Of a stretch of 64,000 nt of DNA, positions 6,124-20,685 are shown one piece after another. Both the position numbers and the translations under genes were made by a program. Every line of letters starts with the position of its first letter. Position 1 is the stretch's first letter. The notes beneath the pieces were generated by a model, which was not told the DNA's origin, searched no databases, and worked only from the letters and a program-made list of their open reading frames with translations. Origin of the DNA: Anaerolineae bacterium (lineage in GTDB: Bacteria > Chloroflexota > Anaerolineae > Aggregatilineales > Phototrophicaceae); assembly GCA_034435995.1 (NCBI GenBank), contig DAOTWC010000081.1:12795-76794 (forward strand), in the 5' to 3' direction.

Positions 6124-8414
6124 CCCGTCACTGGAATATCCTGGCCTGGCCTATCTGGGCCAAGCTGCTGGCTGGATTCGTCGTTGCGGTGGTTGTGCCG
6201 GTGGTGCTGCTGCTGGTGCTGGTCGTGCGCGGCATCCGCGAAATTGACCTCGCCAACGCCGAATCGGCCGTTGCCCAGTTCGGCGCGCAGCAGGCTCAGG
6301 CGCTGGCCAGCGCGTTTGCCCTGGCCAGCAACAGCCTGAACGACTACATCCAGACGCCTACCTTCCGCTCGCTGCTGCTGGAGCTGATCCCAGCCGGGCG
6401 CGCTGGCGACGCCGTCGTTGACCCGCTCGATCAGGCGCGCCTGGTGGGCAACATGCAGGACGGCCTGCTCAACCGGTCGGCCAGCACGTTCACGCGGCTG
6501 ACCCTGCTCAACTCCAGCGGGCAGGTGATGGCGCAGGCCGCGCCGGGGCGCAGCATCGAGGTGACGATGGGCGAGAGCATGGCGCTCAGCGCGGCCTACC
6601 GCGCCGCCACGCTGGCCTACACGCGCGGCCAGACGCAGGCCGTCGTCGTGAGCGAGGAGGGCGGCCAGCCGGTGATCGAGATCGTCAACGTGCTGTTCCG
6701 CTACAACGTCGTCGAGTTCCGCCAGTTCCAACTGCCCATCGCCTACCTGGTGGCGCGGCTGAACCCGGCCTTCACCGTTTACGACAAGCTGCCGCCTGTT
6801 ACTGCGCCTGATCAGCCGCGCGCCTACCTGGTGTCGCGCGGTGGCGTGGTCATCGCCGACGGCGCGGCCCGCTCTGGCGCGACCGACCTGGCCACCTCGG
6901 AGCTGGTGCGCGCCGCGCTCGCCGGCGCGCCGCAGGTGGCGCGGGCCAGCGAAGGCACAGCCGATGAGGTAGTGCGCTACGCCGTCCTCATCGAAAACAC
7001 GCCGCTCGTTCTCATCAGCGAGCGCGCGACCAACTCCGTCGCCAGCCAGATGCACGGCTACCTGCTGACGCGCGGCTTCCCGCTGCTGATGGGCCTCACG
7101 CTGCTGGCCCTGCTGCTGGCGCTACTGTTCAACCAGTTCCTCACGCCGCCGCTGCGCCGCCTGACGCAGGCCATGCAGACCACAGGCCGCGTCAGCTTCG
7201 ACAGCCCTGTGCCCGACGTTAACCGCGGCGACGAAATCGGCGACCTGGCGCGCGCCTTTGCCGACATGCGCCGCGAAATCGCCGAGCTGGTGCACGGCCT
7301 AACGCTGAGCGTCTCCGAGCGCGAACGCGACATCAGCGCCACCCAGGACATCAGCCGCTTCGCCGCCGCTCAGCGCGATCTGCAGCACTTGATTGACCGC
7401 GTGGTTAACCTGATCGTGGATCGCTTCCCCAACATTTACCACGCCCAGATTTTCCTGCTCGACGACGAAGGCCGCTACGCTGTGCTGCGCGCCAGCACCG
7501 GCGAGGCTGGTGCACAGCTGCTGGCGCGCGGCCACCGCCTGGAGGTGGGCAGCCGCAGCGTTATCGGCCAGGTGACCAGCTTGGGGCAGACGATAGTGGC
7601 CCGCGACATCGGCGCCAGCGACATTCACCGCCGCAACGAATTCCTGCCCGACACGCGCGCCGAGCTGGCCGTCCCCCTGCGCGTCGGCAACCGCGTGATC
7701 GGCGCGCTGGACGTGCAGAGCTTCCTGCGCGACACCTTCAGCGCCGACCAGACGCGCGTGCTGCAGACCATGGCGGATCAGATCGCCATCGCCATCGAGA
7801 ACGCGCGCCTCTACCAGGAAGCGCAGCGCAGCGCCAGCGACGAGGCGCGCCGCCAGCGCGCGCTCACCCGCTACGCCTGGCGCCAGTACCTCTACGACGA
7901 GCGCGCCGCCCGCCTGGAGAGCGCAGCCGGCCGCGCGTCCAGCCTGGAAGCCCTCGACGACCTGCGCCGCGCCGCCGCCGCGCGCGGCGAGGCAGTGGTA
8001 GGCCAGCCCACGCCGCACCACACCGTCGCCTTCGCCGTGCCCATTCGCCTGCGCGGCGAGACGCTGGGCGCGGTGGCCTGGGAGGTGGCCCAGGCCGGCT
8101 TCGACCGCAACAAGGTGCTGCTGGCCCAAGAGCTGACCGACCGCCTCGCCGTCAGCCTGGAGAACGCCCGCCTGTTCACCCAGAGCCAGCGCGCTGCCGA
8201 GCGCGAGCGCTTGGTCAACGAGATCAGCGCGCGCCTGACCGGCCAAACCGACATTGACCACATCCTGCGCACTGCAGTGCGCGAGGTAGGCCAGGCGCTG
8301 CGCGCGCCGCAGGTGACTATCAGCCTGCGCCCCGCCCCCAACAACAGCCCAGAGAGCGCCAACGGCCGCTCCAACGGCCAAACGGGCGAACACACGGAGG
8401 CCAGTGACGTATGA
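6120..8414 (+). CDS. Transmembrane sensor protein: extracytoplasmic domain + HAMP + GAF repeats, no kinase domain
   Basis: ATGA overlap at 6120-6123. TM1 is ILAWPIWAKLLAGFVVAVVVPVVLLLVLVV, followed by a ~290-aa non-hydrophobic segment and TM2 (FPLLMGLTLLALLLALLF). A HAMP-like segment follows (PPLRRLTQAMQ...GDEIGDLARAFADMRREI). Then a GAF (YHAQIFLLDDEG...GSRSVIGQV...RVIGALDVQS...IAIAIENARLYQE), a half-GAF and the conserved tail. Confidence 0.8.
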   Translation: MTRHWNILAWPIWAKLLAGFVVAVVVPVVLLLVLVVRGIREIDLANAESAVAQFGAQQAQALASAFALASNSLNDYIQTPTFRSLLLELIPAGRAGDAVVDPLDQARLVGNMQDGLLNRSASTFTRLTLLNSSGQVMAQAAPGRSIEVTMGESMALSAAYRAATLAYTRGQTQAVVVSEEGGQPVIEIVNVLFRYNVVEFRQFQLPIAYLVARLNPAFTVYDKLPPVTAPDQPRAYLVSRGGVVIADGAARSGATDLATSELVRAALAGAPQVARASEGTADEVVRYAVLIENTPLVLISERATNSVASQMHGYLLTRGFPLLMGLTLLALLLALLFNQFLTPPLRRLTQAMQTTGRVSFDSPVPDVNRGDEIGDLARAFADMRREIAELVHGLTLSVSERERDISATQDISRFAAAQRDLQHLIDRVVNLIVDRFPNIYHAQIFLLDDEGRYAVLRASTGEAGAQLLARGHRLEVGSRSVIGQVTSLGQTIVARDIGASDIHRRNEFLPDTRAELAVPLRVGNRVIGALDVQSFLRDTFSADQTRVLQTMADQIAIAIENARLYQEAQRSASDEARRQRALTRYAWRQYLYDERAARLESAAGRASSLEALDDLRRAAAARGEAVVGQPTPHHTVAFAVPIRLRGETLGAVAWEVAQAGFDRNKVLLAQELTDRLAVSLENARLFTQSQRAAERERLVNEISARLTGQTDIDHILRTAVREVGQALRAPQVTISLRPAPNNSPESANGRSNGQTGEHTEASDV

Positions 8415-19593: not shown

Positions 19594-20685
19594 ATGAATG
19601 CGCACGCTGCATCGCCCACCCTGATCTGTGCCGACTGCGGGCAGGCCGCCGGGCCGCTGGACTGGCACTGCGACGGCCACCCGCTGGAGATCGCCGGCGC
19701 GCCGCCGTTCGACGCCGCCGCCATTGACGCGGGCGCGTGGAGCATGTGGCGCTACGCCGCCGCGCTGCCGGTGGCGCGGCGCGTCTCGCTGGGCGAGGGC
19801 CTGACGCCGCTCGTCCCAGTGCAGGCCGGCGGGATGCGCTTTCACGCCAAGCTGGAGTACCTCAACCCGACCGGCTCGTACAAGGACCGCGGCACGGCTG
19901 CGCTGCTCAGCCACATGCTGGCGCACGGCGTGGCGGCCGTCGTCGAGGACTCATCGGGCAACGCGGGCGCATCGCTGGCGGCCTACTGCGCCGCCGCTGG
20001 CGTGCGGGCGCGGGTGTACGTCCCGGCGGGCGCGCCGGCGGGCAAGAAGCGCCTGATCGAGCGCTTTGGCGCGGCGCTGGTCGAAATCCCCGGCCCGCGC
20101 GCCGCCGCCGCTGACGCCGTGCGCCAGGCCGCCCAAAACACCCCCTACGCCAGCCACGCCTGGAGTCCCTATTTCATTGCCGGGCAGATGACGTGCGCCT
20201 GGGAAATCTGGGAGCAGTTGGGGCGGCGCGCGCCGGACGCGATCGTGTGCCCAGTGGGCTACGGCGGGCTGCTGCTGGGGCTGGCGCGCGGCTTCCGCGC
20301 CCTGCTGGACGCGGGGTTGATCGAGCGACTGCCGCGCCTGTACGCGGCCCAATCAGCCGCCTGCGACCCGCTGGTGCGCGCGTGGGAGCGCGGCGGGCCG
20401 GTGGAGGCGGTCGAGCAGGGCCAGACGGTGGCCGACGGCATCGCGGTGACGCTGCCGCAGCGCGCCGCCGAGCTGCTGGCCGCGCTGCGCGACAGCGGCG
20501 GCGGCGCGCTGCGCGTCTCTGATGAGGCGGCGCTGGCGGCCCAGGCGGCGCTGGCCCGGCGCGGTCTGCTGGTGGAGCCAACCGGCGCGGTGGGCGCAGC
20601 AGCGCTGGCGGACGCCCGGCGGCTGGCCGGCGCGAACGCGGCGTTCGTTGTGCCGCTGACCGGCAGCGGACTCAAGGCGCTGTAG
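19594..20685 (+). CDS. Threonine synthase-like PLP-dependent enzyme (short form)
   Basis: N-terminal Cys-rich segment (LICADCGQAAGPLDWHCDGH). WRY...SLGEGLTPLV. PLP-lysine motif TGSYKDRG (~nt 19870-19893). SSGNAGASLAAY. Confidence 0.8.
   Translation: MNAHAASPTLICADCGQAAGPLDWHCDGHPLEIAGAPPFDAAAIDAGAWSMWRYAAALPVARRVSLGEGLTPLVPVQAGGMRFHAKLEYLNPTGSYKDRGTAALLSHMLAHGVAAVVEDSSGNAGASLAAYCAAAGVRARVYVPAGAPAGKKRLIERFGAALVEIPGPRAAAADAVRQAAQNTPYASHAWSPYFIAGQMTCAWEIWEQLGRRAPDAIVCPVGYGGLLLGLARGFRALLDAGLIERLPRLYAAQSAACDPLVRAWERGGPVEAVEQGQTVADGIAVTLPQRAAELLAALRDSGGGALRVSDEAALAAQAALARRGLLVEPTGAVGAAALADARRLAGANAAFVVPLTGSGLKAL

Follow-up and report, generated by a model that had tools for sequence, protein, structure and literature searches.

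Response regulators whose output is an enzyme include the methylesterase CheB, the diguanylate cyclases PleD and WspR, and RpfG; to our knowledge, it is nearly always transcription, second messengers or motility that a response regulator controls. Fold-type-II enzymes that depend on pyridoxal phosphate (PLP) can also carry regulatory modules, such as the ACT-like module of IlvA, the CBS pair of cystathionine beta-synthase and the S-adenosylmethionine (SAM)-binding N terminus of plant threonine synthase (ThrC). We analyzed a 64,000-nucleotide stretch of genomic DNA (hereafter, the window) from a member of the Anaerolineae, which are poorly studied filamentous Chloroflexota abundant in wastewater sludge and sediments. 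The window contains a gene, here called ThrC-REC, that encodes a ThrC-like PLP enzyme fused to a C-terminal receiver (REC) domain and lies between the genes for a giant hybrid histidine kinase and a transporter of the EamA/DMT family, to which the amino acid exporters RhtA and EamA/YdeD belong. ThrC homologues with a changed function have been described; MetM, a neofunctionalised ThrC homologue that uses O-phosphohomoserine together with a thiocarboxylated sulfur-carrier protein, frequently carries a wrong ThrC annotation (bioRxiv 10.1101/2024.10.14.618325; PMC12172450).

A sequence-only reading of the window had joined the kinase, ThrC-REC, the transporter and a second ThrC-like gene (ThrC2) into one module for the regulated production and export of an unusual amino acid or signaling metabolite. 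Our analysis partly supports this interpretation. We find it on balance probable that ThrC-REC works as a response regulator whose output is a regulated PLP enzyme and that this output is coupled to the transport of an amino acid-like compound, and we place much less confidence in any specific chemistry.

Domain architecture of ThrC-REC

The module as originally drawn comprises four open reading frames (ORFs):

8411..16603 (+), giant hybrid histidine kinase, 2730 aa, by its Pfam domains
16720..18390 (+), ThrC-like–REC response regulator (ThrC-REC), 556 aa, Pfam PALP and Response_reg
18404..19570 (+), EamA/DMT-family transporter, 388 aa, two Pfam EamA repeats
19594..20685 (+), ThrC2, a short ThrC-like PLP enzyme, 363 aa, Pfam PALP

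The four genes lie on one strand with gaps of 116, 13 and 23 nt, exactly as first described; Pfam and NCBIfam matched the domains that had been assigned to their products, and the G+C content at third codon positions (~0.9 in each) marks all four as coding.

ThrC-REC begins with an N-terminal Zn ribbon (nt 16753-16812; pattern CxxC-x13-CxxC), followed by the fold-type-II PLP domain (nt 16948-17880) with its PLP lysine, Lys115 (nt 17062-17064). A flexible linker with a conserved EEGLLAALEQ motif, which is also found in distant fused clusters, leads to the receiver (nt 18025-18375) and its phospho-acceptor, Asp487 (nt 18178-18180). The receiver signature (E/D, D, phospho-accepting Asp, T/S and K) is intact in 118/118 close and 99/99 intermediate members of the family (217/217), by which the receiver is predicted to be fully phospho-competent. 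No family member departs from Lys115 or the S-T-G-N motif, and the PLP domain is 70-93% identical between loci, which makes it better conserved than the neighboring genes. An AlphaFold model gave a confident PLP domain and a receiver of moderate confidence. With Foldseek we recovered nothing but ThrC, at a target-normalised TM-score of 0.84 and 30-31% identity in the structural alignment, and solved ThrC structures were the best structural-database matches of both ThrC-REC and ThrC2.

Kinase and ThrC-REC form a conserved unit

We scanned GTDB with one genome per species and found a ThrC-REC relative in 165 species; locus counts here and below use the best 80 of these, whose assemblies are labelled Anaerolineae, Aggregatilineales or Phototrophicaceae, apart from a few with other labels (e.g., Pleurocapsa). 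The window proteins were placed on the 80 loci by tblastn, and all predicted genes were clustered. In 66/80 loci ThrC-REC is immediately preceded by a kinase domain, and EamA follows ThrC-REC in 52/80, as well as in two distant loci, L092 and L094, with gaps of 2-54 nt where the arrangement is conserved. The distance between kinase and ThrC-REC is variable (116 nt in the window, 74 nt in L002, 2 nt in L001). Nine loci with at least 3 kb of upstream sequence lack the giant kinase; six of these have a gene for a REC-HisKA-HATPase protein right after ThrC-REC, and an extra gene of this type, not present in the window, stands between ThrC-REC and EamA in ~47-51 loci.

Among protein clusters (90% identity), more than 120 are 74-92% identical to ThrC-REC; all of these combine PALP with Response_reg, and every organism-named one belongs to Anaerolineae or elsewhere in the Chloroflexota. 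Identity falls to 57-66% in a second large group, and an exhaustive HMMER search added fused clusters (49-53% identity), some of which have two receivers, beyond which it reached non-fused Zn-ribbon ThrC-like proteins at ~40% identity. The closest non-fused relative, P0241, was tried as a route to the characterised Microcystis ThrC and was set aside, because the nearest relatives turned out instead to be further Anaerolineae ThrC-REC fusions.

The pairing of kinase and ThrC-REC extends to the distant lineages L088, L092, L093 and L094 (49-57% identity). L094 (57%) has the order GAF, dCache-GAF, a 2441-aa kinase, ThrC-REC and EamA, and L092 (53%) shows the C terminus of a kinase, ThrC-REC and EamA. 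The giant GAF/PAS kinase of L088 and L093 (49-51%) stops at HATPase_c, without REC, and ThrC-REC(-REC) comes next, either directly or overlapping by 8 nt. Since a non-hybrid kinase is thus joined to a receiver protein, these two loci have the classic layout of a cognate histidine kinase and response regulator.

Such neighborhoods could represent inherited synteny without functional coupling, the fused receiver being a relic. Genes for MoaA and for a pair of large membrane proteins (U800, described below) also persist downstream in many loci, and the L090 lineage has a degenerate receiver, as this explanation would have it. Nevertheless, the kinase and ThrC-REC pairing persists down to 49-57% identity even as the genes flanking the core change from locus to locus, the receiver signature is invariant in 217 sequences, and the gaps are short or the genes overlap. 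We consider synteny alone a very improbable account. The arrangement of kinase, ThrC-REC and EamA is far beyond chance, whereas the adjacency of ThrC2 is not, and these data support the conclusion that kinase and ThrC-REC, usually with EamA, form a conserved operon-like unit over many species and several deep lineages.

A substrate pocket unlike that of threonine synthase

The best NCBIfam matches of both PLP proteins are threonine-synthase models, and both proteins stay under the cut-offs. ThrC-REC scores 161.3 against 167.1 for TIGR00260 and 295.3 against 303 for PRK08197; ThrC2 scores 142.9 against 167.1 for TIGR00260 and 228.6 against 301 for its best model. Canonical Zn-ribbon ThrC representatives reach ~337 on TIGR00260, of which ThrC-REC attains less than half.

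In the ThrC of T. thermophilus, we take T88, N154, S155, R160 and N188 to be the ligands of the phosphate of O-phosphohomoserine; their roles were reportedly assigned by Omi and colleagues in 2003. We rebuilt the T. thermophilus sequence from a PDB alignment, which confirmed the numbering of these five ligands and of K61, and aligned both families (n=118 for ThrC-REC, n=116 for ThrC2) with canonical Zn-ribbon ThrCs. All five residues are present in six canonical representatives, and the positions are conserved in class II, Zn-ribbon and plant ThrCs. In the ThrC-REC family they read V, G, I, A/S and G (118/118), and in the ThrC2 family A, H, A/S, F/Y and H/Q/Y (116/116). Every one of the 118 ThrC-REC proteins retains K61 and S84-T85-G86-N87; the equivalents of K61, S84, G86 and N87 are invariant in both families, with T85 changed to Ser in the ThrC2 family. 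Relative to canonical ThrC, ThrC-REC also has EAMKT for EGQKT and SGGMG for the GNAGN loop that holds the PLP phosphate, and the strict NSxNxxRxEGQKT signature occurs in just 7 of the 150 best representative relatives. Judged by these alignments, both proteins belong to the ThrC fold and keep its catalytic residues, but their substrate pocket has been rebuilt.

The sequence-only reading had remarked that these genes do not look like housekeeping threonine synthesis, and our results point the same way: because the five phosphate residues are replaced and the scores fall under curated cut-offs, the view that neither enzyme is an ordinary housekeeping threonine synthase is supported, if not proven. 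One can still picture ThrC-REC as a housekeeping enzyme whose receiver lets a phosphorelay tune threonine synthesis, with EamA as a threonine or homoserine exporter like RhtA, itself an EamA/DMT protein. Its best family matches, after all, are threonine-synthase equivalogs whose cut-offs it just fails to reach, NCBI and JGI label its relatives "threonine synthase", its conservation is very high (70-93%), and argF-argD lie near the L090 and L092 loci. Genomic context cuts both ways. A canonical thrC was seen neither among the window ORFs scanned nor across ~1.7 Mb of related loci, as would be expected if ThrC-REC filled that role; on the other hand, hom and thrB, reported as missing at the outset, are likewise not found among the window ORFs scanned or in the related loci, and the conserved partners of ThrC-REC are signaling proteins and a transporter. 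With the phosphate-binding residues replaced in every family member and a TIGR00260 score of less than half the canonical value, we regard a housekeeping role as unlikely.

Other functions known from this fold fit no better. MetM sets a precedent for changed function in a ThrC homologue, and the divergence from canonical ThrC is consistent with a homocysteine synthase of this type. However, in none of the loci is there a small ThiS/MoaD-like ORF with a terminal GG in the vicinity of ThrC-REC or ThrC2 (the GG-ended ORFs there are fragments of larger genes, e.g., MoaA), Mec and MoeZ are not among the conserved neighbors, and an Rfam scan found no SAM riboswitch in the window. A MetM-type enzyme would presumably also need the phosphate pocket that is lost here, and we think this assignment highly unlikely. 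The cysteate synthase model TIGR03844 gave 124.8 against a cut-off of 324.9, and the cysteate synthase structure 9K3C was a weak match.

The giant kinase, its upstream genes and the transporter

The Pfam content of the kinase comprises a dCache_1 match (below cut-off), at least eight GAF stretches, PAS, HisKA, HATPase_c and two REC domains. Transmembrane (TM) segments at aa 22-40 and 329-347 bracket the dCache-like domain (nt 8558-9172). HisKA (nt 15023-15226) has the H-box SHELRTP and is followed by HATPase_c (nt 15362-15709), a first receiver with His in place of the conserved Lys (nt 15866-16183) and a canonical second receiver (nt 16226-16537). The kinase is ~340 aa longer than its counterpart in the closest genome (L005; 2389 aa), and a blastn alignment to L005 is broken across window 11485-12513, within the kinase gene; together, the break and the difference in length suggest that GAF modules were gained or lost.

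The module had been taken to start at the kinase (8411). In fact, a co-directional gene string with start/stop overlaps is already under way at or before base 110, and it contributes the following upstream features:

1..1078 (+), GAF-domain protein, the first visible gene (GAF_2, E=7e-13); ORF open at the left window edge, first start codon at 110
1080..6123 (+), three paralogous membrane-anchored single-GAF proteins with 4-6 predicted TM segments each and no output domain recognised
6120..8414 (+), 2-TM/HAMP/GAF protein whose stop overlaps the kinase start

Among the genes at 1080-2786, 2783-4450, 4447-6123 and 6120-8414, each shares 4 nt with the next. The string is therefore a larger unit, which opens with five translationally coupled membrane GAF proteins upstream of the kinase. 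Homologues of the single-GAF membrane proteins lie upstream of the kinase in ~50 related loci, the HAMP/GAF protein is directly upstream of it in relatives as well, and these proteins may be accessory sensors for the kinase. Scans of the gene cluster for promoters, terminators and Rfam families returned nothing convincing.

The transporter has two EamA repeats and a soluble C-terminal tail of ~100 aa. The repeats make the 10 TM segments first proposed plausible, although our crude hydropathy scan resolves 8 hydrophobic segments, and the TM count is best read as approximate. Its match to the generic 2A78 model is weak (34 bits against a cut-off of 230). In L088 (12170-13429) and L093 (4799-6454), the place of EamA is held by a GNAT acetyltransferase gene together with one or two single-receiver genes; we speculate that this swap would fit a product with a free amino group that is either exported or acetylated.

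Proposed mechanism

If ThrC-REC is a response regulator with a PLP-enzyme output, signaling would start at the membrane GAF/PAS kinase, whose extracytoplasmic dCache-like domain is predicted to lie between the two TM segments, with the long GAF/PAS array in the cytoplasm, and which, perhaps assisted by the upstream membrane GAF proteins, would autophosphorylate on the HisKA histidine. The phosphoryl group would then pass directly to Asp487 of ThrC-REC; in most relatives, transfer may instead run through the extra REC-HisKA-HATPase protein that the window lacks. Phosphorylation of the receiver would switch the activity of the N-terminal PLP domain through the conserved linker. Because the pocket for the phosphate of O-phosphohomoserine is rebuilt while catalysis appears intact, the PLP domain most likely carries out a beta/gamma-elimination or replacement on a different amino acid substrate, or with a different leaving group, from canonical ThrC. 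EamA would move the substrate or product across the membrane; in other lineages, its place in the gene order is taken by the GNAT acetyltransferase.

Several observations weigh against this scheme. Two receivers make the window kinase a hybrid, and no HPt domain was detected in it, which makes the route of phosphotransfer uncertain. Linker residues 403-423 of ThrC-REC have a pLDDT (predicted local distance difference test) <50, and the predicted structure has no confident interface between PALP and REC. EamA is missing in 23/68 loci with enough downstream sequence, and it is thus an accessory, not an obligate, partner. Finally, the L090 lineage, with its degenerate receiver and without the kinase, has ThrC-REC beside argF-argD-pyk, a setting that looks like ordinary amino acid metabolism.

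A bolder version would make ThrC-REC the founding case of a new class of response-regulator output: a kinase-gated PLP enzyme that makes a non-proteinogenic amino acid, or a signal or antimetabolite derived from an amino acid, which EamA exports and which is GNAT-acetylated elsewhere. We offer this tentatively, as a minority possibility. Were it true, the output of signaling would be a secreted small molecule instead of gene expression. The broader reading, of a regulated PLP enzyme coupled to transport, would mean that Anaerolineae have a widely conserved regulator by which small-molecule chemistry is linked directly to the sensing of the environment. Whichever applies, several hundred clusters (90% identity) annotated as "threonine synthase" lack the ThrC phosphate pocket, which matters for metabolic reconstructions and auxotrophy predictions. 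The cultured relative Phototrophicus methaneseepsis has a ThrC2 gene with a partial EamA gene ~8 kb upstream, and the system would be experimentally accessible there if this organism also has ThrC-REC.

ThrC2 is a local neighbor

ThrC2 retains the catalytic lysine (Lys97; nt 19882-19884), and the Cys-rich N terminus noted at first sight is real, in the form of a degenerate CxxC...HCxxH. The idea that two ThrC paralogs flanking an exporter make up a module is not borne out. When we examined neighborhood conservation, as the sequence-only reading had advised, the linkage of ThrC-REC to kinase and EamA held up, but that to ThrC2 did not: ThrC2 orthologues (at least 47% identity) lie <10 kb from ThrC-REC in just 7/80 loci, there 5-8 kb downstream, and 3.8 Mb separate the two genes on one contig of 6.2 Mb. 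ThrC2 belongs to a recurrent block of its own, consisting of a divergent MoaA gene, an optional APH kinase or sulfatase-like gene, ThrC2 and one or two genes for ~800-aa GT-C-like membrane proteins. This MoaA-ThrC2 block often comes shortly after EamA, and this accounts for the loci in which ThrC2 is close to ThrC-REC.

The arrangement in the window itself can be traced by comparison with L005, the closest genome, whose ThrC-REC is 92% identical. There, an ArsR-DUF2087 gene and an opposite-strand MoaA gene separate EamA from ThrC2. By blastn the two sequences are collinear save for one 2.3-kb segment absent from the window, and synteny stops right after ThrC2. ThrC2 abuts EamA in the window because the 2.3 kb present in L005 is missing, and a local deletion appears to have put it there in the source genome. 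The 23-nt gap, across which ThrC2 is probably co-transcribed with EamA, is thus a lineage-specific feature.

We also weighed the possibility that ThrC-REC and ThrC2 act sequentially in one pathway whose product EamA exports. The spacing of 13 and 23 nt with its probable co-transcription, the seven loci with ThrC2 5-8 kb downstream and the stand-alone REC gene that follows ThrC2 in L003 and L011 would fit such a pathway, which we nonetheless judge improbable, since ThrC2 is not in the neighborhood in 73/80 loci, has its own conserved partners, is separated from EamA by other genes even in L005 and, compared over the same pairs of genomes, has a higher rate of evolution than ThrC-REC. ThrC2 is an unrelated neighbor and no conserved member of the unit.

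The partners of ThrC2 offer a hint to its own function. A gene for an APH-family kinase lies directly upstream of it in L085 (5042-7071, with a 4-nt overlap) and L004 (6844-9089), a hint that this kinase supplies ThrC2 with a phosphorylated substrate. The L004 kinase has no thrB_alt match, its best match being merely APH(9)-like, which bears on any reading of ThrC2 as a housekeeping enzyme linked to thrB.

Downstream of ThrC2 or EamA in ~21 loci, and absent from the window, are pairs of polytopic ~800-aa proteins (U800). They look like GT-C-type membrane proteins, and we treat them as synteny, outside the system:

L003 9627-14493, L002 15326-20166 and L085 7090-9465, U800 membrane proteins with a faint GT-C_AftD match and a conserved N-terminal HIWWxxHALQTGQNPF

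Other features of the window

One further ORF follows ThrC2 in the same direction, and it is doubtful that it forms part of the unit:

20763..21104 (+), 113-aa ORF with good codon bias, no family match and no homologue in ~90 related loci

Elsewhere in the window, a 1320-aa ORF (26437-30399, +) has a strong coding signal, one N-terminal TM segment and no Pfam match. A TIR-domain protein (43867-44970, +; TIR_2, E=9e-25, with a weak ThsB_TIR match) may be defense-related, and 59117-60388 (+) encodes a protein of the bacterial eRF1-like group (baeRF family 10). The sole Rfam match in the window is a tRNA gene at 53683-53766 (-); the end of a predicted 188-aa ORF (53157-53723) falls within it, and this ORF is therefore probably spurious.

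Comparison with known systems

ThrC-REC resembles canonical ThrC (EC 4.2.3.1; T. thermophilus 1UIM/1V7C, A. aeolicus 2ZSJ) in its fold, PLP lysine, S-T-G-N motif and Zn-ribbon N terminus, the last of which is found in many archaeal and bacterial ThrCs. It differs from canonical ThrC in the replaced phosphate residues, the SGGMG loop, the sub-cut-off scores, the C-terminal receiver and the absence of hom/thrB linkage in the window. In common with MetM and the cyanobacterial "unique ThrC lineage", ThrC-REC is a diverged ThrC homologue of a kind routinely annotated as threonine synthase; in contrast to MetM, and in a comparison made by gene context, the MetO, Mec and MoeZ partners and the SAM riboswitch are absent here. 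The transporter shares two EamA repeats with RhtA and EamA/YdeD, and its gene lies beside that of an amino acid-type enzyme, whereas its weak 2A78 match and additional ~100-aa soluble tail set it apart from them.

With respect to regulation, ThrC-REC has in common with IlvA, cystathionine beta-synthase and plant ThrC that a linker joins PALP to a regulatory domain. Its control would, by analogy, resemble that exerted by the C-terminal modules of other fold-type-II PLP enzymes, with phosphorylation by a kinase, as we propose, in place of metabolite binding. Like CheB, PleD, WspR and RpfG, it combines a predicted phospho-competent receiver with an enzyme, and its gene lies beside that of a histidine kinase; unlike theirs, its output is a fold-type-II PLP amino acid enzyme, positioned N-terminal to the receiver. 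We found no description of a ThrC-receiver fusion in the searchable full-text literature, and ThrC-REC would represent an enzymatic response-regulator output of an undescribed type, encoded in a conserved operon-like unit with a transporter.

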